Position numbers and translations under genes: made by a program | NCBI GenBank assembly: GCA_902612825.1 | Contig: CACMET010000001.1 | Coordinates: forward strand, 35,014 to 99,013 | Reading direction: 5' to 3' | Source: an uncultured Alphaproteobacteria bacterium | GTDB taxonomy: Bacteria > Pseudomonadota > Alphaproteobacteria > HIMB59 > GCA-002718135 | DNA: 64,000 nt | Shown: piece after piece, positions 41,730-62,188 of the stretch | How positions within the stretch are numbered: position 1 is the first letter of the stretch | Layout: every line of letters begins with the position of its first letter | Notes under the pieces: model-generated | The model's input: the letters and a program-made list of their open reading frames with translations, nothing else | Databases searched by the model: none | Told to the model about the DNA's origin: nothing

Positions 41730-43499
41730 ATGGCAAAAATGACAACAGAAGAGGCTTTCGTAAAAGTTTTACAAAAACACGGTATTCAACACGCTTTTGG
41801 AATAATTGGTTCGGCATTTATGCCGATATCAGATCTTTTTCCTAAAGCTGGAATAACATTTTGGGATGTTGCTCATGAGTCAAACGGTGGAATTATGGCT
41901 GATGGCTATACAAGATCTACTGGTAAAATTGCAATGTGTATTGCGCAAAATGGACCTGGTATAACTGGCTTGGTTACACCTATAAAAACTGCTTTTTGGA
42001 ATCATACTCCAATGCTTTTAGTTACTCCTCAAGCAGCTAATAAAACTATTGGTCAAGGAGGTTTCCAAGAAGTCGAGCAAATGAACTTATTTAAAGATAT
42101 GGTGTGCTATCAAGAAGAAGTAAGAGATCCCTCCAGAGTTGCAGAGGTTTTAAATAGAGTAATTTCAAAAGCTATTAAAGGATCTGCTCCTGCTCAATTA
42201 AATATACCAAGAGATTTTTGGACCCAAGTTGTTGATATTGATCTGCCACCTATAATTAAATTTGAAAGACCTGCTGGTGGAACAGAAGCAATTAAAGAGG
42301 CTGCTGATCTTTTATCTAATGCAAAATTCCCAGTCATTTTGTCTGGTGCTGGAGTGATATTAGCTGACGCTATTGATGATTGCAAAAAACTTGCTGAAAA
42401 ATTAAGCGCTCCTGTTGCTTGCGGATACCAACACAATGATAGTTTTCCAGGCAAACATCCCCTTGCGGTTGGTCCTTTAGGATACAATGGATCTAAAGCA
42501 GCAATGGAAATAATATCTAAGGCAGATGTAGTTTTAGCACTTGGTACAAGATTAAATCCCTTCTCAACTTTACCAGGTTATGGGATAGATTATTGGCCAA
42601 AAAATGCGGCTGTTATTCAAGTTGATATCAATTCTGATCGCATTGGTTTAACAAAAAAAATAAGCGTTGGTATTTGTGGAGATGCAAAATTAGTTGCAGA
42701 ACAAATTTTAGAAAACCTTACAACAAATGCAGGTGATCAAAATAGAAAAGAACGAGAGGATTTAATTCATAAGACAAAGTCAGCTTGGCTTCAAACATTA
42801 ACTGGCCTTGATCATGAAGAAGATGATCCTGGTACATCTTGGAATAAAGATTCACGAGATAGAGAACCAGAAAAAATGTCACCAAGAATGGCATGGCGAG
42901 CTATTCAAGCAGGTCTTCCTGAAGATGCAATTATATCAAGTGATATAGGAAATAATTGTGCAATAGGTAATGCGTATCCAACATTTGAGAATGGTAGAAA
43001 GTATTTAGCACCTGGTTTATTTGGGCCATGTGGGTATGGTTTTCCTTCTGTAATTGGAGCAAAGATAGGTTGTCCTAATACACCAGTTGTTGGTTTTGCA
43101 GGTGACGGCGCATTTGGAATTAGTATGAGTGAAATGACTTCTTGCAATAGGGAAGGTTGGCCAAATATTACAATGATAATTTTTAGAAATTATCAATGGG
43201 GAGCGGAGAAAAGAAATACTACACTTTGGTATAATAATAATTTTGTTGGAACAGAACTTGATCCTAAATTAAGCTATGCAAAGATTGCAGAAGCATGTGG
43301 ATTTAAAGGTGTTAAAGTTTACACTCAAGAGGAACTAACAGAAGCTTTGCAACAATCTTGCAAGGATCAAATGGAAGGCATTACTACTTTTATAGAAGTT
43401 ATGTTAAATCAAGAACTAGGAGAACCTTTTAGACGAGATGCTATGAAGGCCCCAGTTGAAGTTGCTGGAATTGATCCAAAAGATACAGTAGTTCAATAA
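41730..43499 (+). CDS. xsc: Sulfoacetaldehyde acetyltransferase (ThDP-dependent)
   Basis: 589 aa. N-terminus MAKMTTEEAFVKVLQKHGIQHAFGIIGSAFMPISD and QGGFQEVEQM follow Xsc sequences as recalled. ThDP motif GDGAFG...N. Confidence 0.85.
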   Translation: MAKMTTEEAFVKVLQKHGIQHAFGIIGSAFMPISDLFPKAGITFWDVAHESNGGIMADGYTRSTGKIAMCIAQNGPGITGLVTPIKTAFWNHTPMLLVTPQAANKTIGQGGFQEVEQMNLFKDMVCYQEEVRDPSRVAEVLNRVISKAIKGSAPAQLNIPRDFWTQVVDIDLPPIIKFERPAGGTEAIKEAADLLSNAKFPVILSGAGVILADAIDDCKKLAEKLSAPVACGYQHNDSFPGKHPLAVGPLGYNGSKAAMEIISKADVVLALGTRLNPFSTLPGYGIDYWPKNAAVIQVDINSDRIGLTKKISVGICGDAKLVAEQILENLTTNAGDQNRKEREDLIHKTKSAWLQTLTGLDHEEDDPGTSWNKDSRDREPEKMSPRMAWRAIQAGLPEDAIISSDIGNNCAIGNAYPTFENGRKYLAPGLFGPCGYGFPSVIGAKIGCPNTPVVGFAGDGAFGISMSEMTSCNREGWPNITMIIFRNYQWGAEKRNTTLWYNNNFVGTELDPKLSYAKIAEACGFKGVKVYTQEELTEALQQSCKDQMEGITTFIEVMLNQELGEPFRRDAMKAPVEVAGIDPKDTVVQ

Positions 43500-45104
43500 T
43501 TATTTCTGATCTTTAATAATTAAGTCTGATGCTTTTTCAGCAATCATCATAGTAGGGGCATTCGTATTACCTGAAGTTATAGTTGGCATCACAGATGCAT
43601 CAACAACTCTTAAGTTGTTTATTCCTTTTACTTTAAGATTATCACTTACAACTGAGTTTTCATCATTACCCATTTTACAGGTACTTACTGGATGAAAAAT
43701 AGTGTTTGCAAATTTACCCACTTCTTTTGCTAGAGATTGATTATCTTTAAATTGTATTCCTGGTCTATATTCTTCTGGTTCATAATTTTTATATGCTTTT
43801 GATTCTAAAACTATTTTTCTTACAATTTTAATTGATTTTCCTGCAATTTCCCTATCTTCATCAGTAGATAAATAGTTCATTTTTATTTGAGGATAAATTC
43901 TTGTATCTGAAGATTTAATTTCTACAGAGCCTCTACTTGTAGGTTGTATATTTGTTATTGTAGGAGTGAATGCTGGAAATTTATGTAGGTCTGCTTTTCC
44001 TAATAAATCAGTGCTAGCTGGCGAGATATGAAATTGTAGATTAGGGTTTTCTAAATACGAATCACTTTTAATAAAACCGCACAAGTAACTTGCTCCAACT
44101 GTTAAAGGTCCTTTTTTATAAATTAAATAATTTAATCCTGTTAAAAATTTTTTACTCAAACTGTGATATATATCGTTTAATGTTTCTAAGTTTTTAATTT
44201 TGTAAACTGGTCTTAACATTAAATGATCGGTTAAATTTTTTCCAACACCTTTAATTTCTTTTACAATATTAATATTATTTTTATTTAATAATTTACCTGG
44301 ACCAATACCTGAAGCTTGTAATATGTGAGGAGATCCAATTGTTCCTGCAGACAATAAAACTTCTTTATTTACAGAATATGAAAATTCTTCATTATTTTTC
44401 CATAAATTTACAGTTTTTACTTTTAAATTTTCAATTGTTAATTTTTTAACATGTGCCTTGGTTATAATTTTTAAATTTTTTCTATTTTTTATAGGATTTA
44501 AGAAAGCAACTGCAGCACTACATCTATACCCTTTATCAATTGTCATTGGAAAATAACCCATTCCTTCATTGTCACCATCGTTAAAGTCTTCATTTTTTTT
44601 GTATCCAAATTCTTGAGAGGCCTCTAAAAATAAATCTAATAATTTAAAATTTGATCTAATTTTCTCTACTTTTATGGGTCCATTGGTACCATGAAATTCA
44701 CTTTTAGAAATTCTGTAATCTTCAGATTTTTTAAAGTACGGTAATACGTCTTCCCAAGACCATCCCATATTACCTAATTGTCTCCAGTAATTGTAGTCAT
44801 TTGCATGACCTCTTATATATAACATTCCATTAATTGATGAACTTCCACCCAATGTTTTTCCTCTTGGAATAAGCATTTTTCTATTATTACAAAATTTTTC
44901 CTCTTCAGTTGTGAAGCACCAATCAGTTTTAGGATTATGCATTGTTTTAAAATAACCACCCGGAATATGTATCCAAGGATTAGTGTCTTTTCCTCCAGCC
45001 TCAATCAAAAGTACTTTAATGTTTTCATTCTCTGAAAGTCTATTTGCTAATATGCAACCAGCTGTACCTGCACCAATAATAATATAGTCAAAACTTTGGT
45101 TCAT
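43500..45104 (-). CDS. GMC-family FAD oxidoreductase (choline dehydrogenase-like)
   Basis: 534 aa. FDYIIIGAGTAGCILANRLSE and active-site HPVSTCKMG. Confidence 0.88.
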   Translation of the reverse strand: MNQSFDYIIIGAGTAGCILANRLSENENIKVLLIEAGGKDTNPWIHIPGGYFKTMHNPKTDWCFTTEEEKFCNNRKMLIPRGKTLGGSSSINGMLYIRGHANDYNYWRQLGNMGWSWEDVLPYFKKSEDYRISKSEFHGTNGPIKVEKIRSNFKLLDLFLEASQEFGYKKNEDFNDGDNEGMGYFPMTIDKGYRCSAAVAFLNPIKNRKNLKIITKAHVKKLTIENLKVKTVNLWKNNEEFSYSVNKEVLLSAGTIGSPHILQASGIGPGKLLNKNNINIVKEIKGVGKNLTDHLMLRPVYKIKNLETLNDIYHSLSKKFLTGLNYLIYKKGPLTVGASYLCGFIKSDSYLENPNLQFHISPASTDLLGKADLHKFPAFTPTITNIQPTSRGSVEIKSSDTRIYPQIKMNYLSTDEDREIAGKSIKIVRKIVLESKAYKNYEPEEYRPGIQFKDNQSLAKEVGKFANTIFHPVSTCKMGNDENSVVSDNLKVKGINNLRVVDASVMPTITSGNTNAPTMMIAEKASDLIIKDQK

Positions 45105-46927: not shown

Positions 46928-47341
46928 ATGAAAATACTTATTTGTGGTCTTCCTGGTGCTGGCAAAACTTGGTTAGCTGAAAGGCTTATTAAAGTAATTG
47001 ATAATTGTGCTTGGTATAACGCAGATGTAGTTAGGAAGTCAGCAAACGATTGGGATTTTACGATGGAAGGTAGAATACGACAAGCCAATAGAATGAAAAC
47101 ATTTGCCGATTTCGAAAAACAAAATGGAAGATGGGTAATTTGTGACTTCGTAGCACCAACTGAAAAAGCAAGAGAAGCTTTTGAGCCTGATTTTGTTATC
47201 TGGCTGGATACTATTAAAGAAGGTAGGTTTGAAGATACAAATAAAATGTTTGAACAACCAAATAAAACTGACATTAAAATAACTAAATTTTTATCAGATG
47301 AAGAAATAGAAAATCTAGCAAAGGAGATTAAAAATGTTTGA
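46928..47341 (+). CDS. Short P-loop kinase, adenylyl-sulfate (APS) kinase-like
   Basis: 137 aa. Walker A GLPGAGKT. NADVVRKSANDWDFTMEGRIRQANRM...ICDFVAPTEKAREAF parallels the recalled APS-kinase pattern DGDxxR...DLGFS..DR.ENIRR...FISP...R. Confidence 0.55.
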   Translation: MKILICGLPGAGKTWLAERLIKVIDNCAWYNADVVRKSANDWDFTMEGRIRQANRMKTFADFEKQNGRWVICDFVAPTEKAREAFEPDFVIWLDTIKEGRFEDTNKMFEQPNKTDIKITKFLSDEEIENLAKEIKNV

Positions 47342-47729
47342 TTGGAAAAAACCAACAGTACAAATGTTAGGTAGATGGCAACCATGGCATGACGGACATA
47401 CAGAATTATTTAAAAGAGCACTTCAGAAAACAGGTCAGGTATGTATTATGTATCGTGACGTTGGAGGTGTAGATGCAGGAGTAGAAGGTCAAGCTGACAA
47501 TCCATTTCAATTTGAAGAAGTAAAAGCAAAAATTAATGAAGGTTTAGCTCAACATGGTTTTACTGATGGAAAAGAATATGTAGTTGTTAAGGTTCCAAAC
47601 ATTATTGATATTTCTTATGGAAGAGGAGTTGGTTATTCATTTACAGAACATGATTTAGGAAAAGAAATACATGATATCTCGGCAACAAAAATTAGAAATG
47701 AAATGAGAGTTAAAGGGGAATTAAAATAA
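47334..47729 (+). CDS. Small cytidylyltransferase-fold nucleotidyltransferase (TagD/NMNAT-like)
   Basis: 131 aa. GRWQPWHDGH (HxGH) motif and C-terminal ISATKIRNEM. 8-nt overlap (ATGTTTGA) with the kinase gene. Confidence 0.6.
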   Translation: MFDWKKPTVQMLGRWQPWHDGHTELFKRALQKTGQVCIMYRDVGGVDAGVEGQADNPFQFEEVKAKINEGLAQHGFTDGKEYVVVKVPNIIDISYGRGVGYSFTEHDLGKEIHDISATKIRNEMRVKGELK

Positions 47730-47730
47730 G

Positions 47731-49050
47731 CTAAATTTTTTCTCCTGCTGGTTTTCCATATCCAACATTTTTTTTCCCATATCGTCTTACTCTCACATTA
47801 CATTGTTCTGCATGACCTATAAAACCTTCTAAATGTGAAAGTCTAGATCCATATTCTCCAATGAGAGTTGCAGCTTCATCTGTCATAATCTTTTGATAAG
47901 TATGGGTTTTAATGAACTTACCAACCCACAAACCACCAGTATATCTTCCAGCTTTTTTAGTAGGAAGAGTATGGTTAGTACCTATCACTTTGTCACCGTT
48001 AGCAACATTAGTTCTAGCACCCAAAAATAGAGCTCCATAAGATGTCATATTTTCTAAAAACCAATCATCTTTTTTTGTCATAACTTGAACGTGTTCTGAA
48101 GCTATTTCATTTGCTTTAGATAACATCTCCTCATAAGTATCACATAAAATCATTTCTCCATAATCTCTCCAGCTTGTACTTGCTGTTTCTTTAGTAGGTA
48201 AAATTTCTAAAATTCTATCAATTTCTTTAAATGTTTCTTCTGCAAGTTTTCTTGAATTTGTTATCATCACAGCAGGAGAATTATATCCATGTTCAGCTTG
48301 TCCTAATAAGTCTGTTGCACATATTTCACCATCAACAGTTTCATCTGCAATTACCATTGTTTCAGTTGGACCGGCAAATAAATCGATACCAACTTTGCCA
48401 TACAATTGTCTTTTCGCTTCAGCAACAAATGCATTGCCAGGTCCAACAAGCATATCTACAGGTCTAATAGTTTCTGTACCAATAGCCATAGCACCAACTC
48501 CTTGCATTCCTCCCAAAACATAAATTTCGTGAGCACCACCCATTTTCATTGCTGTAACGACAGCTGGATTTGGCTTACCTTTAAAAGGCGGTGTAGTGGC
48601 AACAATTCTTGGAACCCCAGCAACAGAGGCAGTAACAACTGACATATGAGCAGAAGCTACCATTGGGAATTTTCCGGCAGGTACATAACATCCAACTGCT
48701 TGCACTGGTATATTTTTATGACCAAGTATCACACCTGGATGCGTTTCTACTTCTAATTCACTTAAAGTTTTAAGTTGTGCTTCCGCAAATGATCGCACTT
48801 GTTTTTGAGCAAATTTAATATCTTCTTTGTCATCATCAGAGACTTCACTCATTAATTGATTTATTTGCTCTTCACTTAATCTAAAACTATCTGGAGAATA
48901 GTTATCAAATTTTTGAGATAACTCTCTAATATGTTCATCTCCTTCTGATTCAATTTTACTTAATGTTTCCTCAACAATTTTTTTTACTTTATCATTATCT
49001 TCAATTCTTTGTTTTTCATCCAAACCTTTTTTTAAATATTCAATTGCCAT
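47731..49050 (-). CDS. Histidinol-dehydrogenase-family NAD-dependent dehydrogenase (HpsN-like candidate)
   Basis: 439 aa. GCYVPAG, GPGNAFVAEAK, GQAEHGYNSP, GTNHTLPT and GHAEQ regions retain HisD Zn/catalytic residues. No other his genes nearby. Confidence 0.85.
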   Translation of the reverse strand: MAIEYLKKGLDEKQRIEDNDKVKKIVEETLSKIESEGDEHIRELSQKFDNYSPDSFRLSEEQINQLMSEVSDDDKEDIKFAQKQVRSFAEAQLKTLSELEVETHPGVILGHKNIPVQAVGCYVPAGKFPMVASAHMSVVTASVAGVPRIVATTPPFKGKPNPAVVTAMKMGGAHEIYVLGGMQGVGAMAIGTETIRPVDMLVGPGNAFVAEAKRQLYGKVGIDLFAGPTETMVIADETVDGEICATDLLGQAEHGYNSPAVMITNSRKLAEETFKEIDRILEILPTKETASTSWRDYGEMILCDTYEEMLSKANEIASEHVQVMTKKDDWFLENMTSYGALFLGARTNVANGDKVIGTNHTLPTKKAGRYTGGLWVGKFIKTHTYQKIMTDEAATLIGEYGSRLSHLEGFIGHAEQCNVRVRRYGKKNVGYGKPAGEKI

Positions 49051-49052
49051 AA

Positions 49053-50150
49053 TTATTTTTTATGAATTAATTTAAAGATATCAATGCCTATTTGATCTAA
49101 TATGTGTGCAATATCGATTGGTACCCAATTTTCTCTAATTAACCCTTCATGATGTAAATAAAAATCCATAACTCTTATTGTAATTTTTTTATTAGTTGGC
49201 TCATAACCTAACCATTCTTTTGAACCATGAATGCATTCTATGCTATGCCAACCTCCAGTCATTGAATAATTACCATCACCAATTTCAATATAATGTCCAA
49301 TTTTCCAATAATCCCTTTCTTTAAATGTAAGTCTAAATGGAAGTTGATGATATTCTACATATCCTTTTAAACCTCTTGCAGTTCCTATTCCTGCAGGTCC
49401 GTGCCACATCATTTTTGGATGCCAATAATTTTTTTGAGGATGATTAAGTAATTTATCTCTTATATAATCTTTGTTTGAGTTTGGATCACTTTCGGGCTTA
49501 ATATTTAAACTTCGCTGCATGGTTAATGCTTGATTTAAAGATTCTAAAGATAATTCGTTGTCAAAATTTTCATTATTTTCTCCATCTCCAGTAATAGGCG
49601 CTGACCACATACCTTCTGCTCCTAAAGATTTATTAATTGGCCAGTGTCCAGCTTGTCTAATAAAATCAACTGTATCAATTAAAACATATGATTTTATAAT
49701 TTTACCATTAGAGATTTGATGAGCTTCGCAAGTTCTAAGATAAATATTTTTTTTTGTGGGTGTAACACCGAGCCATTCGTTGACAAATGTTCCAGTTAGA
49801 TAGCTAACAAACGATACAAATACTTTGTCTCTATAAGATCCTCCAATTACAATTATATTTCTTCTTTCGAGATCTGGAAAAGCTTCTTTTAGAGGTATCC
49901 AAAGTTTATTTTTTATATTCTCAACACCACTTATTTCATTTATTGGATGAAAAGCATTTAATTCAGCTTCTTCATGGTATAAGTTTTTTAAATTAACTCC
50001 TAATTCATCTAAAGGAGATTCAGCAACTTTATTTAATAAATATTTAAATTTTTTTTTATTTTCTAAATTTTCACTTGTACTTAAATCTACAAAAATTATT
50101 TTCTTGTTTTCTTTTTCCCCTGTTTCAAAATCTTCAATTTTATTTGTCAT
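49053..50150 (-). CDS. Tandem NTF2-like (SnoaL/ester-cyclase-like) protein, paralogue A
   Basis: 365 aa. Two SnoaL-like halves (FPDLERR... and ...MDFYLHHEGLIRENWVPIDIAHILDQIGIDIF). Clear paralogue of 59334-60407. Confidence 0.6.
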   Translation of the reverse strand: MTNKIEDFETGEKENKKIIFVDLSTSENLENKKKFKYLLNKVAESPLDELGVNLKNLYHEEAELNAFHPINEISGVENIKNKLWIPLKEAFPDLERRNIIVIGGSYRDKVFVSFVSYLTGTFVNEWLGVTPTKKNIYLRTCEAHQISNGKIIKSYVLIDTVDFIRQAGHWPINKSLGAEGMWSAPITGDGENNENFDNELSLESLNQALTMQRSLNIKPESDPNSNKDYIRDKLLNHPQKNYWHPKMMWHGPAGIGTARGLKGYVEYHQLPFRLTFKERDYWKIGHYIEIGDGNYSMTGGWHSIECIHGSKEWLGYEPTNKKITIRVMDFYLHHEGLIRENWVPIDIAHILDQIGIDIFKLIHKK

Positions 50151-50180
50151 AAAAATTATTTACATACTAATAAATATTAA

Positions 50181-50212
50181 TTGATTTATTCAATAATTTG
50201 AATAATATTCAA
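50181..50212. promoter_or_regulatory. Two adjacent palindromes TTGATT-TATTCAA (50181-50193) and TTGAATA-A-TATTCAA (50198-50212), candidate LacI operators
   Basis: Located in the 89-bp divergent spacer between the 49053-50150 and 50240-51211 operons. Same half-site as the perfect palindrome at 54360-54375. Confidence 0.5.
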
Positions 50213-50239
50213 AAAAAATGAATAAAATATCATAAAGAT

Positions 50240-51211
50240 ATGTCAATTAATATTACTACAAGATTAGCAAAATTTGAGGAACTTATTCCAAGTACTATTC
50301 CTTTTGTAGAAGGAAAATTAAAGGGACATCAAGATAGGAAAAATTATTCTGTTATAGGCCCAGGTGTTAGTGAAGATGCTAAACAAAATGTTAAAATAGC
50401 TGAAGCGCATGGCTTCAATATTGGAGCTGTAAGTGCTGCTCCAATGAACGGTTCTGGATTACATAGCCATACAACTGCTGAAGTATTTATAATTCATTCT
50501 GGTGCTTGGCGTTTCTATTGGGGAGTTGATGGCACAGAAGGAGAGGTAATACTTAAAAAAGGTGATATTGCTTCTTTCCCTACAAATATGTTTAGAGGTT
50601 TTCAAAATGTAAGCAAAGAAGAAGCGTTAATGTTTGTAGTTTTAGGTGAAAATGATCCAGGTGTAATCACTTGGACTCCAAAACTTTTAAAAGATGCAAA
50701 AGATTCTGGTATGGTATTAATGAATGATAATTCTTTAGTAGATACAGAAAAACAGAAAATTACTGATGAAACTAAAATTATTCAACCATTAAAAGAAGAT
50801 GAATTAAAGAGTTTTGATCATTATTCCTCAGAAGATATAGAAAAGTTTGTCATTCGATTTGATGAAAAAGATAAATACTTTGTTGATGATGAACACTATC
50901 AATCCAATAAAATTATTAATTACCTTGATCAATTTAATATTCATAATAAATCATTTATTCCAAACATACCGCATTTAACAGGATTTAGCCTTTCACTTCT
51001 CCATGGAAAAAATGCCCATATACATGAATACAAATTTGAGAAATCAGAAGTATATCATTGTTTATCTGGTGAATGGGAAATAGATTGTGATGGAGAGAAA
51101 GTAGTAATTAAGGACAAGGATACTTTTTCAGTACCAAAAAACTCATCACGATCAATTAAGCAGATAAGTGATGAGGATGGAAATTTATTTATTATAAGAC
51201 AAACAAATTAA
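50240..51211 (+). CDS. Bicupin protein
   Basis: 323 aa. N-terminal cupin motif GSGLHSHTTAEVFIIHSG...GDIASFP and a second C-terminal cupin barrel (EVYHCLSGEWEI...DTFSVP). Confidence 0.7.
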   Translation: MSINITTRLAKFEELIPSTIPFVEGKLKGHQDRKNYSVIGPGVSEDAKQNVKIAEAHGFNIGAVSAAPMNGSGLHSHTTAEVFIIHSGAWRFYWGVDGTEGEVILKKGDIASFPTNMFRGFQNVSKEEALMFVVLGENDPGVITWTPKLLKDAKDSGMVLMNDNSLVDTEKQKITDETKIIQPLKEDELKSFDHYSSEDIEKFVIRFDEKDKYFVDDEHYQSNKIINYLDQFNIHNKSFIPNIPHLTGFSLSLLHGKNAHIHEYKFEKSEVYHCLSGEWEIDCDGEKVVIKDKDTFSVPKNSSRSIKQISDEDGNLFIIRQTN

Positions 51212-51223
51212 GAATTCAGTTAT

Positions 51224-52198
51224 ATGAAAGGTTTTAATAACAAGTTTGAAAATCTTCCAGATTATATTCTAAAAATAACTCATCAGATATGGGAAGAAAA
51301 AGATGTTAACTCAATTATGGAATATTATGCTGAAAATATTCCTGTTAGATCACCTATGGGAATCATTTATGGACCTAATACAGTAGTTGATGCAACTAAT
51401 GCAACTTTAGACGAATTTCCAGATAGGCAATTATTAGGTGAAGATGTAATTTGGATTGGTAACGAAGATGAAGGGTTTTTATCTTCTCATAGAATTCTTA
51501 GTAAAGCCACTCATGTAAAAGATGGTTTATATGGGAAAGCAACAAATAAAAAACTTGTATACAGAGTCATTGCTGACTGCGCTTGTAAGAATAATCAAGT
51601 TTATGATGAATGGTTAGTTAGAGATCAAGGAGCAATTGTTAGACAGCTAGAAATAGATCCAAAAAAATATGCAGCAATTTTAATAAAGCAAGAAGGTGGA
51701 ATAAAGAATTGCATTAAACCATTTGATAAGAATTCATCTCAAGAAACAAGTTATGCACCACCAATTTTATCAAAAAATAATATAGCTGATCAATATGCAG
51801 AAAATTTAGAAAACATTCTTAATATTAATTCTAAATCTACAATTGAAAAAAATTATGACAGATCAGTTCAACAATTTCAACCAGGAGGTTTTGTTTGTTA
51901 TGGTATCGATGATGTAACAAATTTCTGGCTAAATTTAAGACAATCTTTCCCAGATGCTCTTTTTAGAATAGAACATAAAAGTTTTACTGTAGAAGAAAAT
52001 CAACCAAAAAAAGTTGCTATACGCTGGTCTTTAGTTGGGAAGCACAGTGGGAATGGTATATTTGGGCAAGCTTCTAATTCTGAGATTTATATTATGGGAA
52101 TTAATCATGCCGAAATAGGACCAAGAGGTATAAAGAACGAATGGGTTTTATTTGATGAAACTGCAATTTGGAAACAAATCTTGATAAAAACAGGTTAA
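51224..52198 (+). CDS. Tandem NTF2-like (SnoaL-like) protein, divergent member B
   Basis: 324 aa. Two halves each ending in the SnoaL-type pattern (NNQVYDEWLVRDQGAIVRQL; PRGIKNEWVLFDETAIWKQI) with FPD motifs. Confidence 0.55.
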   Translation: MKGFNNKFENLPDYILKITHQIWEEKDVNSIMEYYAENIPVRSPMGIIYGPNTVVDATNATLDEFPDRQLLGEDVIWIGNEDEGFLSSHRILSKATHVKDGLYGKATNKKLVYRVIADCACKNNQVYDEWLVRDQGAIVRQLEIDPKKYAAILIKQEGGIKNCIKPFDKNSSQETSYAPPILSKNNIADQYAENLENILNINSKSTIEKNYDRSVQQFQPGGFVCYGIDDVTNFWLNLRQSFPDALFRIEHKSFTVEENQPKKVAIRWSLVGKHSGNGIFGQASNSEIYIMGINHAEIGPRGIKNEWVLFDETAIWKQILIKTG

Positions 52199-52205
52199 TT
52201 AAAAA

Positions 52206-53333
52206 ATGTCTAAAATATTAACTACACATGTAGGCAGCTTGCCTAGATCAAAAGGACTTTCAGAAATTTTATTTTCTAAAGATCGGGGTGAAAAATTTAT
52301 TAAAGAAGATTTCAATAATATATTGAAAAAAAATGTTGAGACAATTGTTAAAAAACAGATCGAAGTTGGTATTGATTATATAAGTGACGGTGAAATGAGT
52401 AAAATAAGTTATGCCACTTATATAAAAGATAGGATAGATGGTTTTTCTGGAGAAAGTGAAAGAAGAGCACCAGCTGATTTAGATGATTTTCCAGAGTATA
52501 AAGAAAAAATAGCTAAAAGTGGGGGTACGCCAACGTATAGCAGACCGTGTTGTACTAATGCATTAAAAATCAAAGATAAAGATTCATTAAATAAAGACTT
52601 AGAGAATTTTAAAAATTCATTAGATAAAAACAATCATCAAAAAGCATTTATGAATGCTGCATCACCAGGTGTCATAAATGTATTTATGCCAAATAGGTTT
52701 TATAAAACAGATGATGAATATTTACATAAACTTTCAGAAATTATGGCTATTGAGTATGAGACAATTACTAAATCAAATATACAAGTGCAATTAGATTGTC
52801 CTGATCTTGCATTAGCTAGACATATGAATTTTAAGGAATTATCCCAACAAGAATTTTTAAAACGTGCGGAAATTCAAATTGAGTGTTTGAATGAAGCTTT
52901 AACTAATGTAGATGTTAATATGACTAGAATGCATATTTGTTGGGGAAACTATGAAGGACCTCATACACATGATATCCCACTAGAAAAAATATTACCAATA
53001 ATTTTAAAATCTAAAATTAAATATTTTTTAATTGAGTCATCAAATCCCAGACACGCACATGAGTGGAAAGTTTTTCAAGATATTAAATTACCAAAAGATA
53101 AAGTTTTAGTTCCTGGTGTTATCGATTCAACATCAAATTTTGTTGAGCACCCTGAGGTTGTAGCAGATAGATTAATTCAGTTTTCAACGGTAATTCCAAA
53201 AGACCAACTAATGGCTGGAACTGATTGCGGATTTAGTACTTTTGCAGGATTTGGCAAAATTGATGAAAATATTTGTTATGAAAAACTTCATTCTTTAGTT
53301 GAAGGAACTAAATTAGCAAACAAAGTTATATAA
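52206..53333 (+). CDS. Cobalamin-independent methionine synthase C-terminal-domain-like (core-MetE-like) Zn alkyltransferase
   Basis: 375 aa. N-terminal TTHVGSLPR. Candidate Zn ligands RMHICWGN (HxC) and GTDCGFS retained. Confidence 0.8.
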   Translation: MSKILTTHVGSLPRSKGLSEILFSKDRGEKFIKEDFNNILKKNVETIVKKQIEVGIDYISDGEMSKISYATYIKDRIDGFSGESERRAPADLDDFPEYKEKIAKSGGTPTYSRPCCTNALKIKDKDSLNKDLENFKNSLDKNNHQKAFMNAASPGVINVFMPNRFYKTDDEYLHKLSEIMAIEYETITKSNIQVQLDCPDLALARHMNFKELSQQEFLKRAEIQIECLNEALTNVDVNMTRMHICWGNYEGPHTHDIPLEKILPIILKSKIKYFLIESSNPRHAHEWKVFQDIKLPKDKVLVPGVIDSTSNFVEHPEVVADRLIQFSTVIPKDQLMAGTDCGFSTFAGFGKIDENICYEKLHSLVEGTKLANKVI

Positions 53334-53334
53334 T

Positions 53335-54333
53335 TTATCTAGATGTTTTTCTTTTTATTAACGTTCCTTGGATTAAATGACTAACGGCCTCATAATCTGG
53401 ATCTTTAATGTTATCATTAATAAGTTGAGTTACTAATTTTGACATTTGTCTCAAGGGCTGTTTTACAGTACTTAAATTGTAAGATGACCAGTTTGCCATT
53501 GAGATATCGTCATATCCAAATATTTCAATATCGTTAGGTATTTCAATTTTTGTATTTTTTTTAATGTAATCTAAACATCCAAATGCCATCGTATCATCTG
53601 CACAAAAAATAGCTGAGATTTTTTTATTCGTTAAGATTTTTGCTGTTGCAGCATATCCACCTTCATATGTAAAATTTCCTTTTTGAGAGTATAATTTTAA
53701 TTTTTTTGATTTTTTTAATTTATTTTTAAATCCTTTACATCTTTCATTACTTACATAAGATCCTGTGGGACCTTCAATTAAACCAACTTCCTGATGGTTA
53801 TTTTTGATTATTTGATCTGCAATTAATTCACCACCAAATCTATGATTACATGCAACTGAACTTATAGTAGGGATATCCCAAGCTCTATTATAGGCTATAA
53901 TTTGAATCTTTTTATTTAAGCAATTTTCAACAAATTGATCTGTTGGTTTAGTTGCTGAAATTATTGCAACTAATCTTTCTTTCAAATATGGCTGAATGAG
54001 CTTATCGTCTAATTCTTCACCATCATCAGTTGTTATCAATAAAATTCTAAAACCCGATAAACGTAGCGCTTCATGCAATTCAGTTAATACCTCTGGATAA
54101 AATCGATTGGTTATATAAGGTAAAATAACTCCCACTAGTCCACTATCTTCAATATTTTGAGAATCTTGCAAAAAAGTTTGAGGTTTATATTTTAGTTTTT
54201 TGGCAGCTTCAAGAACCCTTAGTTTTGTCCTGCTTGAGATGCTTGCACCTTTAGTAAAACATCTTGAAACAGCTGATTGAGATACTCCTGCTAATTTTGC
54301 GACATCTTGGGATGTGGCATTTTTATTCATCAT
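53335..54333 (-). CDS. LacI-family transcriptional regulator
   Basis: HTH ATSQDVAKLAGVSQSAVSRCF plus periplasmic-binding-fold core. The track start at 54375 is a TTG inside the palindrome. ATG at 54333, preceded by AAAGGAAAA, is preferred. Confidence 0.88.
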   Translation of the reverse strand: MMNKNATSQDVAKLAGVSQSAVSRCFTKGASISSRTKLRVLEAAKKLKYKPQTFLQDSQNIEDSGLVGVILPYITNRFYPEVLTELHEALRLSGFRILLITTDDGEELDDKLIQPYLKERLVAIISATKPTDQFVENCLNKKIQIIAYNRAWDIPTISSVACNHRFGGELIADQIIKNNHQEVGLIEGPTGSYVSNERCKGFKNKLKKSKKLKLYSQKGNFTYEGGYAATAKILTNKKISAIFCADDTMAFGCLDYIKKNTKIEIPNDIEIFGYDDISMANWSSYNLSTVKQPLRQMSKLVTQLINDNIKDPDYEAVSHLIQGTLIKRKTSR

Positions 54334-54359
54334 TTTTCCTTTTTTATGTATGCAAATGC

Positions 54360-54375
54360 TTGAATAATTATTCAA
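54360..54375. promoter_or_regulatory. Perfect 16-bp palindrome TTGAATAATTATTCAA, candidate LacI operator
   Basis: In the lacI / ABC-transporter divergent spacer, 27 nt upstream of the preferred lacI ATG and 59 nt upstream of the SBP start. Confidence 0.55.
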
Positions 54376-54433: not shown

Positions 54434-55648
54434 ATGAAAAAAATACTAGTATTATTTGCGATTTTCACATCATTTTTTTTCTTAGCCGGTACTAATGCAA
54501 AAGCTTGCGAGCTAAACAATTCTGTACCAGTAACTTCTTTATCTGCAGGATTTGATGCCTGGAAAGTTGTTACTTCTGCTATGGAAGAGTGTGGAAATTT
54601 TACACCTACACTTGATCAAGAATACAGAGATAAGCTTGTTGCATCATTAGAAAGCAACCCATCTCAATTTACAATGGCAGGTGTTTCAGCTTCTACAAAT
54701 GTATCGGTTCTTGATGCTGGTGTAACTAGACCACTTGACGATCTAGTTGCTAAATATGGAGACTCTCTACAAGATAATCAAAAAATTGTAATTGATGGAA
54801 AAATTATGGCAATTGCAATGATGACAAATGCTCAACATTTATTTTACAGAGAAGATATTTTGAGTGATCTTGGTATAGATATTCCAACAACTTATGACGA
54901 GCTTTTGAAAGCTGCTAAAGTTATTAAAGATGCTGGAGTTGTAGATTATCCACTTGGTGGAACATTCAAGTCAGGTTGGAATTTAGGAGAAGAATTTGTA
55001 AATATGTATTTGGGCTTTGCTGATTCTTTTTTTGATGGAAATATGCCAGCAGTTAATAATAACGATGGCTATGAAACACTTAAGATGATGAAAAAACTAA
55101 CAGAATATATGGATCCTGAGTATTTAACTTCAGATTCTACATATGTTCAACAACAATTCCAACAGGGTAAGATTGCTCTTGCAAACCTTTGGGCGTCTCG
55201 AGCTGGTGCTATGGATAATGCAGAGGAGTCAACAGTTGTTGGATTAGTAAAGTTTGCATCAGCGCCTAAAGCAAAAAAGAATGGTAAACCAGCATCTACA
55301 TTATGGTGGGATGGTGTTGTTATAGCTAAAAATGTTACTGATGAAGAAGCAGAAGCAGCATTTAAACTAGCTATGGTTGGATTAGATGCAGCAAACTTAG
55401 GAGCGAACCCTGAAGCTGCTCCTTGGCTGTCTAATGCGTTTGATCCAGCTCCATCAAATATTGGTGCAATTTTAACTGCAAAATCTGGAGCAGCTCCTTA
55501 TCCTGCATCAGCAAAAATGAGCACACTCCATGGAGTCTTAGGTGCTGCTATTGGTGATTATTTGACTGGCGCAGCTACTGCAAAAGCTACTCTAGAAAAA
55601 ATTGAGGCTGATTATATTACTGCAGCAACAGAAAAAGGTCTCTTATAA
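54434..55648 (+). CDS. ABC transporter substrate-binding protein (family 1, CUT1 sugar/polyol type)
   Basis: 404 aa. Signal peptide, family-1 SBP length and pattern. Followed by MalF/MalG-type permeases. Confidence 0.88.
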   Translation: MKKILVLFAIFTSFFFLAGTNAKACELNNSVPVTSLSAGFDAWKVVTSAMEECGNFTPTLDQEYRDKLVASLESNPSQFTMAGVSASTNVSVLDAGVTRPLDDLVAKYGDSLQDNQKIVIDGKIMAIAMMTNAQHLFYREDILSDLGIDIPTTYDELLKAAKVIKDAGVVDYPLGGTFKSGWNLGEEFVNMYLGFADSFFDGNMPAVNNNDGYETLKMMKKLTEYMDPEYLTSDSTYVQQQFQQGKIALANLWASRAGAMDNAEESTVVGLVKFASAPKAKKNGKPASTLWWDGVVIAKNVTDEEAEAAFKLAMVGLDAANLGANPEAAPWLSNAFDPAPSNIGAILTAKSGAAPYPASAKMSTLHGVLGAAIGDYLTGAATAKATLEKIEADYITAATEKGLL

Positions 55649-55666
55649 TTTTATATAATTGTATAT

Positions 55667-55696
55667 TACTCCCCTTTTAAAATCTTAAGGGGGGTA
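55667..55696 (+). promoter_or_regulatory. Intercistronic GC-rich hairpin (10-bp stem) between the SBP and permease genes
   Basis: TACTCCCCTT-(10 nt)-AAGGGGGGTA with one G-U pair. The 3' arm contains the only SD-like purine run (GGGGGG) before the permease ATG at 55707. Confidence 0.5.
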
Positions 55697-55706
55697 ATAT
55701 TAGTAA

Positions 55707-56726
55707 ATGAAAAAATCTACTTTTTTAGTTTTTACAATGCCATCATTTATAATGATGACATTATTTATTGCCTTACCTCTTCTAATAGTTTTAATTCAAA
55801 GTTTTCAATTCAACCAAGATGTATTAGAAACGATTGAAAGAGAAAATTGCGATCCTTTTGGATGTAAAACAGAAACAATTACCGTTCCTGTATTAGATGA
55901 AAATGGAAATAAAATAAAAAATAATATTTGGGTAGGCTTTCAAAATTATAAAAATATTTTGAAATTTGAACAATTATCATCTGTTATTTCAAATGATGGT
56001 TTTGAATGGAGTAAAATAAGATCTATTGATTTTTATAAAGCTCTAAGGTTTACACTAACATTTACATTTATTACTTTACCATTTGTAATAATCTTAGGTT
56101 TAATATTAGCTCTATGCGTTAATGTTTTAATTAATAGATTGAAAGGTCCAATAATTTTTATAACCTTGCTCCCATTTATAATTACACCTGTAATAGGTGC
56201 TTTATCAATAAAATGGTTATTTATAGGAGATGGTATATTAACTTTATTTTTAGAAAATATTTTAGATAAAGATATTGCCCTATTTTCTCAAGGCTGGACG
56301 ATAGAGATTCTAATGCTTTTTTATAGAGTTTGGCACACTATACCTTTTGCCTTTGTTATTTTTTATGCAGGACTACAAACTGTCGATAAAGAAAAAATTG
56401 AGGCAGCATTTGTAGATGGGGCAAATAGACTTCAGCGTTTAAGATTTATTATAATTCCGCATATCATGCCATTAATAGTATTTGTTGCTTTAATTCATTT
56501 AATGGATTCATATCGAGTTTTTGATGAAATTGTTGGTTTTAGTGCTTCTGGATTTAGGATTTCATTACAATGGATGACTTATGATTTCTTGAGAATTGAT
56601 GATTCTGGAACAAGATCTATTGGAAGAGCATCAGCTACTTCTGTTCTTACAATGATAGGAATTATAATAATATTAATTCCAGTTTTAAGAAGAACTTTTA
56701 AAGAGCAAAAAGAAAAAAGATTATAA
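55707..56726 (+). CDS. ABC transporter permease (MalF/UgpA-like)
   Basis: 339 aa. EAA-loop region IEAAFVDGANRLQRLRFIIIP. Extended first periplasmic loop. Confidence 0.88.
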   Translation: MKKSTFLVFTMPSFIMMTLFIALPLLIVLIQSFQFNQDVLETIERENCDPFGCKTETITVPVLDENGNKIKNNIWVGFQNYKNILKFEQLSSVISNDGFEWSKIRSIDFYKALRFTLTFTFITLPFVIILGLILALCVNVLINRLKGPIIFITLLPFIITPVIGALSIKWLFIGDGILTLFLENILDKDIALFSQGWTIEILMLFYRVWHTIPFAFVIFYAGLQTVDKEKIEAAFVDGANRLQRLRFIIIPHIMPLIVFVALIHLMDSYRVFDEIVGFSASGFRISLQWMTYDFLRIDDSGTRSIGRASATSVLTMIGIIIILIPVLRRTFKEQKEKRL

Positions 56727-57859
56727 TGGAAAGTAAACTTTTTAACTTAACCACGCCTCTTAAAATTATTGTTTCAATTACAATAATTACGTGGTGTATA
56801 ATTGCTTTATTCCCTCTCTTATGGATTGTTGTAATGTCAATAAAACTTCCTGTTGATTCTTTTGCTTCCAATCCTTTAAAGGTAATAATTGGTCCAAGCA
56901 CAAAAGAACAGGTTGGAGGTCTATCTTTTGTTAACTTTATTTTTCTTTTTCTATCAATTTATTTGTTTTATAAATTATACCAAATAAGAAAAATTTTATT
57001 TGATTTAATTAATCCTATTTTAAAATTTTCTTTAATTACTTTTTTCATTTTATTCATTTTATATATAACTATTTCCTTCATATTATTTTTTTTAATTCAA
57101 AATAATTTATCTGAATTTGTAAATATATTATTTTCAAATTTAGAATTCTTAAAAATTTTTTCTTACCCAATAATAGGTTTTACTCCTCAGCATTATTTGT
57201 CTGTTTGGGTTGGTAATGAATTTTATAAACAATTCTTAAATACTATGATTGTAACAGGTGGGGTTGTTACAATTTCATTAACTGTTGGAACACTAGCTGG
57301 TTATGGATTAGCAAGAAGTAATTCTATGATTGCCTTTTGGCTTTTAATTTTTGCTTTAATTTTTAGAGCCTTACCTCATTCTGTTTTGGTTACTGGTTAT
57401 TTAGAACCTTTTATAAATTATGGATTATATGGAAAAAAAATTGCTGTTATTGTTTTGTTAGTAGCTATTAACCAACCTTTTACAATATGGATGCTGAGAT
57501 CATTTTTTATGAATATACCTCAAGATTTAGATGAAGCTGCTCAAATTGATGGATGTAATCCTTTTCAAGCTTTCTGGAAAGTTGTGATGCCTTTAATGTG
57601 GCCAGGTGTAATTACAACAGGATTATTTTCTTTCTTGTTAGCTTATAATGATTATCTTGTTGCAGCATTATTATTAGATGGACAATCACAAACTATGGTT
57701 CCAGCAATTATGCAATATTTTAATATGGAAACTAAAATGACAGATTTAGTTGAGTCAATTGCTGCTGCTGCATCAATTACCGCACCATTGTTTTTGTTAG
57801 TGATGTTTTTCCAAAAACAAATAGTGTCTGGTTTAACTCAAGGTGCAGTAAAGGGTTAA
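56726..57859 (+). CDS. ABC transporter permease (MalG/UgpE-like) with ~90-aa insertion
   Basis: 377 aa. EAA loop LDEAAQIDGCNPFQAFWKVVMP. Two additional hydrophobic segments at aa 66-85 and 101-124. Confidence 0.85.
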   Translation: MESKLFNLTTPLKIIVSITIITWCIIALFPLLWIVVMSIKLPVDSFASNPLKVIIGPSTKEQVGGLSFVNFIFLFLSIYLFYKLYQIRKILFDLINPILKFSLITFFILFILYITISFILFFLIQNNLSEFVNILFSNLEFLKIFSYPIIGFTPQHYLSVWVGNEFYKQFLNTMIVTGGVVTISLTVGTLAGYGLARSNSMIAFWLLIFALIFRALPHSVLVTGYLEPFINYGLYGKKIAVIVLLVAINQPFTIWMLRSFFMNIPQDLDEAAQIDGCNPFQAFWKVVMPLMWPGVITTGLFSFLLAYNDYLVAALLLDGQSQTMVPAIMQYFNMETKMTDLVESIAAAASITAPLFLLVMFFQKQIVSGLTQGAVKG

Positions 57860-57893
57860 CAATAATATGATAATTATTTATTAAAATTATAAG

Positions 57894-58553
57894 ATGAAAT
57901 ACAAAGCATTACTTTTTGGATCAATTGGAACACTGATTGAATCTTCTAATATCCAACGTAATTCATTTAACGAAGCCTTTAAAGAAGCTGGTTTAGATTG
58001 GTATTGGGACGAGCAAGATTATAGAATTTTATTAAAAAAATCAGGTGGCACTAAGAGAGTAGAAGATTTTGCAGAAAAAAATAATATCAATGTTAATGCA
58101 TCACAAATTAGAGATAGAAAAACAGAATTATTTAGTTCATTCATTATTCAAAACAAACAAAAATTAAGAGAAAGTGTTTATGAAATGATTAGATATACTA
58201 AAGATAATAATATTAAACTTGCATTCTCAACTTCTACAACTGTAAATAATGTAGAAGCTGTATTTGAAAGTCTTTCTAATCAAATTTCAAAAGCGGATTT
58301 TGATTTTATTGGAAATAGATCATTTGTTAACAATGAAAAACCTCATCCAGAGATATATAAAGTAACACTAGAAAAATTAAATTTAAAACCTGAAGAATGT
58401 CTTGCAATTGAAGATACAGAGGAAAGTAGTAATGCCGCTGTTAATGCAAGTGTTAAATGTATTGCATTTCCAGGTGATTTTCACAAAGAAGATAAATTTG
58501 ATATGTGCATCAAAAAAATGAATTTATTAGATCAAACCATTTTTTCATTGTAA
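57894..58553 (+). CDS. HAD-IA (CbbY/beta-PGM-like) protein lacking both motif-I aspartates
   Basis: 219 aa. Motif I reads FGSIGTL instead of FDxDGTL. Motifs II (FSTST), III (KPHPEIY) and IV (IEDTE) are recognisable. Confidence 0.75.
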   Translation: MKYKALLFGSIGTLIESSNIQRNSFNEAFKEAGLDWYWDEQDYRILLKKSGGTKRVEDFAEKNNINVNASQIRDRKTELFSSFIIQNKQKLRESVYEMIRYTKDNNIKLAFSTSTTVNNVEAVFESLSNQISKADFDFIGNRSFVNNEKPHPEIYKVTLEKLNLKPEECLAIEDTEESSNAAVNASVKCIAFPGDFHKEDKFDMCIKKMNLLDQTIFSL

Positions 58554-58566
58554 ATTATACGCATAA

Positions 58567-59334
58567 ATGTTTCTAAAAAAATTCGAAGTAAAAGATAAGA
58601 CTGCGCTTGTTACAGGTGCAGGTAAAGGGATTGGTAAAGCATCTGCAATCGCACTGGCAGAAGCTGGAGCAAATTTAATAATTATAAGTAGAACAGAAAA
58701 AGATCTTATAGCTGTTAAAAACCAAATTAAAAAAATTAAAAGAAAATGCAACTACTTTGTTTGTGATGTAACAAATTTAAAAGAAATAAAAAAAATATTT
58801 TCTAAAATTCCAAAATTAGACATATTAGTAAATAACGCTGGAACAAATAGGCCAGAATATTTTACTAAAATTAAAAGAAAAGATATGAGTGAAGTGGTTG
58901 ATCTTAATATTAAAGCATCATTTGATATTGCTCAATTAGCAACAAAAATTATGCTAAAATCAACAAATAGAAAAAAAAGTGGTGGATCAATTATAAATAT
59001 TTCATCTCAGTTAGGTAAAGTTGGAGCTCCTCTTAGAAGTGTTTACAATATGACCAAGTTTGGCGTTGAAGGTCTAACTAAAGGAATGGCTATCGATTTA
59101 GCAAAACACAACATTAGAGTTAATTCAGTTTGCCCTACATTTGTTGAAACTCCTATGGTTAAAAAATTTTTCAAAGATAAAAATTTTAAAAAATCTGTTA
59201 TTGAAAATATACCTTTAGGAAAAGTAGCAACAGAAAGTGATATTGCTAGTGCAGTAGTGTATCTTGCTTCTGATGCTGCATCGATGATAACTGGCTCTTC
59301 ATTAGTAATTGATGGAGGATGGACTGCTAAATAA
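58567..59334 (+). CDS. SDR-family oxidoreductase
   Basis: 255 aa. TGAGKGIG, NNAG and S...YNMTK catalytic motifs. Confidence 0.9.
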   Translation: MFLKKFEVKDKTALVTGAGKGIGKASAIALAEAGANLIIISRTEKDLIAVKNQIKKIKRKCNYFVCDVTNLKEIKKIFSKIPKLDILVNNAGTNRPEYFTKIKRKDMSEVVDLNIKASFDIAQLATKIMLKSTNRKKSGGSIINISSQLGKVGAPLRSVYNMTKFGVEGLTKGMAIDLAKHNIRVNSVCPTFVETPMVKKFFKDKNFKKSVIENIPLGKVATESDIASAVVYLASDAASMITGSSLVIDGGWTAK

Positions 59335-61288: not shown

Positions 61289-62188
61289 TTAGTTATTTGC
61301 AGCAACTACAGCTGCCATAATTGATGCAAGTTTAGAATTTTTACTATCTGCTCGACTAGGAACCACAACTGGTACTTTACCACCAATTACTATTCCTGCT
61401 GCACAAGCATTCATAAAATAAACCATTATTTTGGATAAAGAATTTCCAGTTTCTAAATTAGGAACTAATAATACATCAGTATTACCAGCAACATCGTTCT
61501 TAATCCCTTTTATTTTAGCTGCTTCCTCAGAAACAGCATTATCAAAAGCAAGCGGCCCATGAACAAAAGCATTAATTTTTTCTTCTAACGCAAGTTCCAT
61601 AACTTTTTTGGCATCAACTGAACTTGGCATACTATCAATTGGATCTTCTGTACCTGATAAAATTGCAACTTTTGGTTTGTTAATGTTTAATTTATTACAA
61701 AACTGCACAGCATTTTTAAGAATTTGTAATTTTATATCAACTCTTGGTAAAACATTTAAGGCGCCATCAGTGATAAAAAGAGGTTTTTTAAGCTGCGGTG
61801 TAGTCATATGCCAAATATGACTTAATCTTCTGCCATCAAGTAAATTAAATTCTTTTTTTAAATAAGAGCGCATTAAAATATCAGTATGGAGGTTCCCTTT
61901 AATTATGATTTTACTTTTATTTTCATTAGACATCTGACAAGCAATTGAAGCACTATCCTCTTCATCTTTAGCCTCTACAATATTAAAATTAGAAATATCA
62001 AAACTTAAATTTTTCGCTGTTTCAGCAATTGAACTTCTATTTCCAATTAAAGTTGGATCGATGAGGTTCATATTCTTACCTTCAATTACAGCTGATAATA
62101 TGCTTTCTTGATTGGGGCACACAACAGCTGCAGGTATGTTAGGAGTTTCTAAAGCTTTACTTTTAAGATCTTCTGGTAATGTGCTCAT
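61289..62188 (-). CDS. pta: Phosphate acetyltransferase (PTA_PTB family, short form)
   Basis: 299 aa. ITDGALNV and VVPSRADS...KLASIMAAV patterns. Same neighbourhood as xsc and the aminotransferase-ald pair. Confidence 0.8.
   Translation of the reverse strand: MSTLPEDLKSKALETPNIPAAVVCPNQESILSAVIEGKNMNLIDPTLIGNRSSIAETAKNLSFDISNFNIVEAKDEEDSASIACQMSNENKSKIIIKGNLHTDILMRSYLKKEFNLLDGRRLSHIWHMTTPQLKKPLFITDGALNVLPRVDIKLQILKNAVQFCNKLNINKPKVAILSGTEDPIDSMPSSVDAKKVMELALEEKINAFVHGPLAFDNAVSEEAAKIKGIKNDVAGNTDVLLVPNLETGNSLSKIMVYFMNACAAGIVIGGKVPVVVPSRADSKNSKLASIMAAVVAANN

Follow-up and report, generated by a model that had tools for sequence, protein, structure and literature searches.

The 64,000-nucleotide window analyzed here, from contig CACMET010000001.1 of an uncultured alphaproteobacterium of the lineage HIMB59; GCA-002718135 (assembly GCA_902612825.1), carries on its reverse strand at positions 47731–49050 an intact open reading frame encoding a 439-residue dehydrogenase of the HisD family, designated P0001. 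The protein matches Pfam PF00815 from end to end at 445.6 bits (residues 15–421 on profile positions 4–411 of 411) and the NCBIfam hisD model TIGR00069 at 429 bits, against a cut-off of 243.8. The zinc ligands are Q251, H254, D353, and H413 and the catalytic pair is E319/H320; these residues align one-to-one with E318, H319, D352, H359, the QAEH motif, and the partner-chain His of HpsN from Cupriavidus pinatubonensis (CpHpsN), a sulfopropanediol 3-dehydrogenase that oxidizes 2,3-dihydroxypropane-1-sulfonate (DHPS). With the full-length domain, the zinc ligands, and the Glu-His pair all present, P0001 belongs to the HisD superfamily (PF00815). A prior sequence-only reading had proposed an HpsN-like enzyme that keeps the HisD catalytic and zinc residues, and every motif that it quoted is found in the translation: QAEH at 251–254 followed by GYNSP, AGKFPMVASAHM at 125–136, GTNHTLPT at 357–364, and GHAE at 412–415. 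The departures from the HisD signatures are likewise as described, QAEHG standing for QAEHD and AGKFPMVASAH for GG.A.YPSS. The substrate loop reads G126-K-F-P-M130, with H134, and residues 352–354 are GDK, in which K354, the equivalent of CpHpsN Lys353, is kept.

The gene directly upstream, P0002 (49053–50150, reverse strand), encodes a 365-residue tandem SnoaL/NTF2 protein (PF07366 and PF12680). The 2-nucleotide gap reported between the two genes is as stated, the TAA stop of P0002 being followed by tt and then by the ATG of the HisD-like gene, and because the P0002 stop lies 2 nucleotides before the P0001 start the two genes probably form one operon. A promoter and terminator scan of positions 47300–50300 returned no terminators, and promoter-like sites were no commoner than in shuffled sequence. 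In marine metatranscriptome libraries from several studies, 42–67% of the sampled words of the P0002–P0001 stretch are present, and the SnoaL/dehydrogenase junction is bridged by contigs from four studies (X1 and X5, 48896–49085; X7, 48482–49141; X10, 48482–49393). These matches fit expression and co-transcription of the two genes, with the reservations that DNA carry-over is possible and that a contig is not equivalent to a single transcript.

P0001 lies outside any his operon, as had been claimed, and no his gene is found nearby. The assembly (1.36 Mb in 43 contigs, 79% complete, ∼29% G+C) contains exactly two PF00815 genes, of which the second, on contig C10 directly downstream of hisG, is the true hisD. 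Because this second gene scores better against the profile (509.7 bits), adjoins hisG, and encodes a protein only 35% identical to P0001, P0001 is a paralogue and not the sole hisD of the genome. The copy in his context is the one on contig C10. A redundant or back-up histidinol dehydrogenase is an alternative that the TIGR00069 score would allow, and NCBI records call relatives of P0001 ‘histidinol dehydrogenase’. Such a role is considered highly improbable, given that a canonical hisG-hisD pair is present elsewhere in the genome, that its HisD is only 35% identical to P0001, that GG.A.YPSS, QAEHD, and GDY are exchanged for AGKFPMVASAH, QAEHG, and GDK, that P0001 is split from the HisD clade with support of 97/95 in the tree described below, and that a duplicate is unlikely to be retained in a streamlined genome of 1.4–1.7 Mb.

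Among solved structures, the best match to P0001 is CpHpsN (8V35, 400.5 bits), followed by the (R)-DHPS dehydrogenase of Ruegeria pomeroyi (8WWE, 358 bits); the best HisD reaches 260.8 bits. The HpsN family is marked by the motif G-R-Y-A/S-H, residues 122–126 of CpHpsN, in which His126, conserved in HpsN homologues, hydrogen-bonds the sulfonate together with Lys353, the corresponding position in HisD being mostly Leu (PMC11382572). P0001 does not have this motif: its loop is G-K-F-P-M at residues 126–130, with Met130 at the position of His126 and with K and F in place of R123 and Y124. The loop GKFPM recurs in 12 of 12 closest orthologues and is GKYPL in three more distant ones (consensus of the 15, [AG]-G-K-[FY]-P-[ML]-V-A-S-A-H); the sulfonate-binding His is absent from all 15 of these sequences, referred to here as group A, and present in all nine canonical HpsN sequences aligned. 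The second sulfonate contact, Lys353, is retained in P0001, but this lysine is found throughout the wider clade, also in groups whose function is unknown. Group A and HpsN have different fixed residues in 18 further columns of the alignment (for example K127/R, H111/Q, W375/S, and E415/R), and P0001 is 42–48% identical to canonical HpsNs.

A tree of 42 full-length sequences, rooted on a HisD outgroup, was computed with IQ-TREE under LG+C20+F+G4 from 50%-identity cluster representatives (obtained in a search of 1.84 billion proteins), same-genus copies, copies from other Alphaproteobacteria, and HisDs. The HpsN clade is recovered with support of 100/96, and its members all have G-R-[YF]-x-H with the exception of one basal sequence and of type B, discussed below. 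The group-A clade (the 15 sequences together with P0125 and P0128, P0001 included) is also supported at 100/96, the 15 orthologues forming a 97/89 clade inside it, and the two clades are joined as sisters at 100/98. P0001 is therefore placed in the sister clade and not in the HpsN clade of the rooted tree, and when HisD and experimentally verified HpsN are included together it falls outside both. Of the proposal that P0001 is HpsN-like, it holds that HpsN is the nearest characterized relative; the protein nevertheless sits in a sister clade, has Met130 for His126, and is of a type that coexists with canonical copies. Judged from the alignment and tree, P0001 is a relative of HpsN that falls outside the present definition of that enzyme.

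Coexistence was assessed in a survey of 400 Alphaproteobacteria with completeness of at least 85%, in which a group-A orthologue (54–85% identity) is present in 43 genomes and a 43–50% identical copy in 34. Eight genomes whose loops were checked carry both a GKFPM and a GRY[ASR]H copy (G127, G196, G219, G350, G377, G386, G458, and G482). In G127 (2.0 Mb), the only one of the two-copy genomes in which the second locus was fully annotated, the GRYAH copy lies in a full DHPS locus (L078, 4533–15016) comprising a LacI-type regulator, the TRAP (tripartite ATP-independent periplasmic) transporter genes DctP/Q/M, HpsN, a short-chain dehydrogenase/reductase (SDR), a zinc-dependent alcohol dehydrogenase, split UxaA-type SuyA and SuyB, and a YeiH-family exporter. 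The group-A copy of the same genome is located ∼0.9 Mb from this hps-suy locus, in a cluster of ATP-binding cassette (ABC) transporter, SDR, SnoaL, and bicupin genes. On this sequence evidence group A forms an orthologous group of its own, found alongside real HpsN in the same genomes.

One conserved cluster surrounds the group-A copy in most of the loci examined, with the copy of G377 and the second copy of G424 as exceptions. The members, in variable order, are an ABC ATPase, a binding protein, two permeases, the dehydrogenase, two tandem-SnoaL proteins, an SDR, a LacI-family regulator, and a bicupin, with a variable slot occupied either by a MetE-like gene or by an alpha/beta-hydrolase and an RraA-like aldolase. 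The gene keeps this cluster about it within the genus of the window, in a different taxonomic order, and on metagenome contigs, where a clade-A representative has the same partners. In some Alphaproteobacteria (L077 13113–14517 and L081 14147–14887) the MetE-like gene is replaced by the hydrolase and the RraA-like (class II pyruvate) aldolase, a replacement that suggests a pathway ending in the cleavage of a 4-hydroxy-2-oxo acid.

In the window, the partner operon divergent from P0002–P0001 lies on the forward strand and begins with the bicupin (50240–51211), which has no match among solved structures, followed by a second tandem-SnoaL copy (51224–52198) and a short MetE-like zinc TIM-barrel protein (52206–53333), for which only weak MetE matches were found. 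All relatives that were inspected have this partner operon beside the HisD-like gene. The LacI-family regulator of the cluster (53335–54375) is on the reverse strand. The forward-strand stretch 54434–60407 then encodes a family-1 sugar-type ABC binding protein (54434–55648), two permeases, a HAD-like protein, an SDR, and a third tandem-SnoaL protein; matches of the binding protein to solved structures are weak and mixed among sugar-binding proteins, SmoF (41 bits) among them, and none of the structure matches of these cluster partners indicates a substrate. Where the SnoaL/HisD-like operon and the bicupin operon diverge, the promoter region (50181–50212), read directly from the sequence, contains a perfect palindrome, TTGAATA-A-TATTCAA, at 50198–50212 and an imperfect copy at 50181–50193. 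This palindrome (the TTGAATAATATTCAA site) is a plausible candidate operator for the LacI-family repressor. No description of this gene combination, of a HisD paralogue in SAR11, or of mycosporine catabolism was found in the literature.

Beyond the third tandem-SnoaL gene, the upstream side of the cluster carries an EamA transporter, a Pta-type phosphotransacylase (61289–62188, reverse), and an omega-aminotransferase (62307–63647, forward). The downstream side carries a convergent small pair (adenosine 5′-phosphosulfate (APS)-kinase-like and nucleotidyltransferase-like), cysQ, a Ca/Na antiporter, a GMC oxidoreductase, and xsc, encoding sulfoacetaldehyde acetyltransferase (41730–43499, forward; TIGR03457, 956 bits). 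Between cysQ and P0001 (46924–47729) the window holds only the small pair, a 137-residue APS-kinase-like P-loop gene overlapping the 131-residue nucleotidyltransferase-like gene. This cysQ-to-dehydrogenase stretch is variable in relatives, some of which have cysD and cysNC there and others aprA/aprB and a QmoC-like membrane protein (aprAB/aprM) (L038 9229–12029; L035 3932–7103). The GMC (choline-dehydrogenase-like) oxidoreductase gene (43500–45104) is convergent with xsc, stop to stop, and GMC genes also flank canonical hpsN loci of other Alphaproteobacteria (L082, L084, L086, and L090) and the SAR11 type-C loci L166–L168.

Within the genus of the window, ∼75 of 104 genomes have a P0001 orthologue at 83% identity or more. 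About 15 others have instead a protein designated type B, which is 47–49% identical to P0001 and occupies the same slot, directly downstream of and co-directional with the same tandem-SnoaL gene. The type-B loci (for example L033 9212–10498, L037 9152–10438, and L036 9071–10357) have the same bicupin, SnoaL, MetE-like, LacI, and ABC neighbors, 60–75% identical to the genes of the window. Type B is nested in the HpsN clade, scores 525 bits to CpHpsN, and agrees with HpsN at 15 of the 18 clade-specific positions; its loop is G-R-Y-N-N, and His126 is thus lost. Among 79 further relatives from SAR11-type single-cell genomes, GRYNN is the commonest form, found in 71 (L095–L165), and canonical GR[YF]AH is kept in seven. 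In Pelagibacteraceae-labelled genomes, these type-B (GRYNN) and type-C (canonical) copies are encoded after pta on the same strand and run toward the SnoaL cluster, which is convergent, with taurine-type ABC genes, a ComC-like dehydrogenase, and an omega-aminotransferase upstream. The SAR11-type loci L166 and L168 (6813–14288) contain a canonical-motif HpsN with a TRAP transporter, an SDR, a rhamnonate-dehydratase-like gene of the enolase superfamily, and a PdxA-like dehydrogenase, and do not include the SnoaL cluster.

Reports of hpsN-like genes in SAR11-type genomes had been cited in favor of an HpsN assignment for P0001, an argument that does not carry over to group A. The published SAR11 homologues are 57–59% (and 54%) identical to HpsN of Ruegeria (RpHpsN) (PMC11131964), values that appear to fit types B and C, the HpsN clade proper, and not group A, P0001 being 42–48% identical to canonical enzymes. 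The only kinetic data for a SAR11 HpsN are those for the enzyme of strain HTCC1002 (CuHpsN), which may or may not belong to type B: its Km for R-DHPS is reported as 106 mM, and its kcat/Km as only 2.2-fold above the value for histidinol (PMC11131964). Since identity does not separate the GRYNN from the GRYAH types, which show 54–62% either way, this Km is not used as evidence on P0001.

The distribution of sulfonate-degrading enzymes differs between genomes with HpsN-type and group-A copies. In 399 genomes of the survey, Xsc (TIGR03457) and/or SuyB is present in 28 of 34 genomes with an HpsN-type copy (82%), in 8 of 31 with group A only (26%), and in 28 of 334 with neither copy (8%), the counts covering Xsc and SuyB only, being not phylogenetically independent, and resting on an HpsN-type set defined by identity band with the loop verified in eight genomes. 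The context of P0001 likewise is not that of hpsN: in place of the TRAP genes hpsKLM, hpsO/hpsP, suyAB, slcD, or cuyA, the neighbors are SnoaL, bicupin, MetE-like, LacI, and ABC genes. The sequence-only reading had taken xsc and pta to fit a sulfonate role; both genes are indeed present, but orthologues of P0001 are found mostly in genomes without Xsc or SuyB.

That reading had also left open the route from the acid product, and SuyAB and SlcD are in fact absent from the window, but ComD and ComE (sulfopyruvate decarboxylase) and a D-2-hydroxyacid dehydrogenase are encoded on the same contig ∼14 kb beyond its end. ComD scores 161 bits (cut-off 148) and ComE 222.1 bits (cut-off 221.5) against NCBIfam models. 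The two belong to a co-directional block at 108810–115792 of contig C1 of genome G000 (L175 4810–11792), 10–17 kb beyond the window end, together with two Gfo/Idh/MocA oxidoreductases, an EamA transporter, a GalM-like aldose epimerase, a PfkB sugar kinase, and the D-2-hydroxyacid dehydrogenase, and this block may supply Xsc as a module for sulfosugars or sulfolactate. In this organism sulfolactate could plausibly be taken to acetyl phosphate by way of sulfopyruvate and sulfoacetaldehyde. Neither the 116 genomes of the family nor the genome itself, which is 79% complete, yielded SuyB; the only match in that genome to PF04295, used as a proxy for SuyB, is a 500-residue fused GarD-like dehydratase beside a xylose-dehydrogenase-like SDR and is not SuyAB. 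AprA gave no significant match in the same 79% complete genome. The paper on AEGEAN-169 does not mention DHPS or sulfonates.

These genes bear on the alternative that P0001 forms sulfolactate, either by oxidizing DHPS (perhaps the S enantiomer) or by oxidizing sulfolactaldehyde released by the cluster from a sulfonated sugar, the product passing through the 2-hydroxyacid dehydrogenase, ComDE, Xsc, and Pta. Genes that could serve downstream are present, xsc and pta in the window and ComD/ComE, the D-2-hydroxyacid dehydrogenase, the GalM-like epimerase, and the PfkB kinase 14 kb on; ComE occurs in 85 of the 104 genomes of the genus, but these include genomes without any HpsN-like gene. Group A stands as sister to the HpsN clade, Lys354 is kept, HpsN-clade proteins fill the same slot in relatives, and the JGI label on close relatives is ‘sulfopropanediol 3-dehydrogenase’, whereas His126, R123, and Y124 are replaced by Met, K, and F in P0001. 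CpHpsN takes sulfolactaldehyde better than DHPS (PMC11382572), which would suit the second version of this alternative. Set against it are the 23 of 31 group-A-only genomes (74%) that have neither Xsc nor SuyB, the G127 and G196 group-A clusters, which contain no desulfonation or sulfite-export gene, and the coexistence of a canonical-motif HpsN in eight genomes, in G127 within a complete hps-suy locus, which argues against the same function for both copies. A sulfolactate-forming role is accordingly viewed as unlikely, though not negligible.

Oxidation of a 2-amino alcohol other than histidinol, such as cysteinolate or a serinol- or homoserine-type compound, is a further alternative, since HisD chemistry handles 2-amino alcohols. 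The HpsN of Bilophila prefers L-cysteinolate (PMC12814064), but that enzyme has the canonical HpsN binding residues that P0001 lacks. A distant clade-A member, P0128 (L045 327–8492, loop GGKYPMVACAH), is located with a TRAP transporter, an AraC-type regulator, an aminotransferase, and a D-serine-dehydratase-like gene, a context that looks like amino-alcohol metabolism, and the window contains an omega-aminotransferase. The cluster itself, however, has no aminotransferase or racemase, its partners being a sugar-type ABC transporter, LacI, SDR, SnoaL, and bicupin proteins, and an amino-alcohol role for P0001 is regarded as doubtful.

The reading that we favor, with moderate confidence, is that P0001 is the alcohol-to-acid dehydrogenase of this conserved orphan cluster and acts on a substrate other than free DHPS. 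It would be an active enzyme, dependent on NAD+ and Zn2+, that uses HisD/HpsN chemistry for the four-electron oxidation of a primary alcohol by way of the aldehyde to the carboxylate. The gene would be transcribed with the tandem-SnoaL gene under the control of the local LacI-type repressor, and the enzyme would carry out an alcohol-to-acid or aldehyde-to-acid step of the ABC/SnoaL/bicupin/MetE-like (or RraA-aldolase) cluster, either on the compound that is imported or on one of its intermediates. Zinc is probably contacted by a vicinal C2-OH or C2-NH2 group of the substrate; the latter is predicted not to be free (R)-DHPS and may well be a non-sulfonate.

Several observations weigh against this assignment. 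HpsN is the nearest characterized enzyme, and the second sulfonate contact, Lys353 of CpHpsN, is kept as Lys354. In this lineage the cluster is embedded among sulfur and sulfonate genes, with xsc, pta, the omega-aminotransferase, and cysQ here and cysDN or aprAB in relatives, and the contig encodes ComD and ComE 14 kb further on. The step could also be DHPS-like to judge from some Pelagibacteraceae-labelled genomes, where the edge of the cluster is occupied by an HpsN with the canonical GRYAH loop. The co-occurrence counts are subject to the limits given with them, and no assay of any group-A enzyme, nor any paper describing group A, was found in the literature.

A broader and more speculative proposal, held with less than even confidence, is that group A is the signature dehydrogenase of an undescribed and widespread pathway for an abundant small polar algal metabolite with a hydroxymethyl carbinol, and that in SAR11-type lineages this step has been taken over twice by HpsN-family proteins without the sulfonate-binding His. 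Candidate metabolites would be a glyceryl or a 6-deoxy-sugar derivative. If this proposal is correct, a sizeable share of the SAR11-like ‘hpsN’ reads in ocean surveys would represent this pathway and not DHPS oxidation.

Much carbon and sulfur passes between phytoplankton and bacteria in the form of DHPS, and hpsN serves as the marker gene for its turnover. SAR11-type bacteria are reported to be top contributors of hpsN transcripts (PMC11131964). Relatives of P0001 are labelled either ‘histidinol dehydrogenase’ (NCBI) or ‘sulfopropanediol 3-dehydrogenase’ (JGI), and if group A does not oxidize DHPS both database labels are wrong and similarity-based hpsN counts are inflated wherever thresholds admit 42–48% identity. 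To call P0001 a DHPS gene is, as far as sequence comparison can tell, probably wrong. The loop motif offers a simple means of splitting the three kinds, GK[FY]P[ML]..ASAH for group A, GRY[AS]H for canonical HpsN, and GRYNN for type B. P0001 and its orthologues are in addition markers for an orphan catabolic cluster under LacI control in about one-tenth of the sampled Alphaproteobacteria, with RNA-library matches in marine metatranscriptomes, and a ligand screen with the binding protein and the repressor should be able to reveal the substrate of the cluster.

Compared with known systems, P0001 resembles HisD (EC 1.1.1.23; E. coli 1K75, Brucella 4G07) in the full-length PF00815 domain, the zinc site, the catalytic His/Glu, and a score over the TIGR00069 cut-off, and differs in lacking the HisD loop, QAEHD, and GDY (GDK instead) and in its position outside the HisD clade and outside a his operon. 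With HpsN (EC 1.1.1.308; PDB 8V35, PMC11382572; PDB 8WWE, PMC11131964) it shares fold, length, zinc ligands, the Glu/His pair, and Lys353, and presumably the chemistry, in which NAD+ and two hydride transfers take an alcohol to an acid; it differs in the absence of the sulfonate-binding His, in the 18 clade-specific substitutions that separate group A from HpsN, and in a context of sugar-type ABC, LacI, SnoaL, and bicupin genes rather than TRAP-hpsOP-suyAB. The SAR11-type ‘HpsN’ with GRYNN (type B) is like P0001 in its slot after the tandem-SnoaL gene and in the loss of His126, yet at 47–49% identity type B lies inside the HpsN clade and P0001 outside it.

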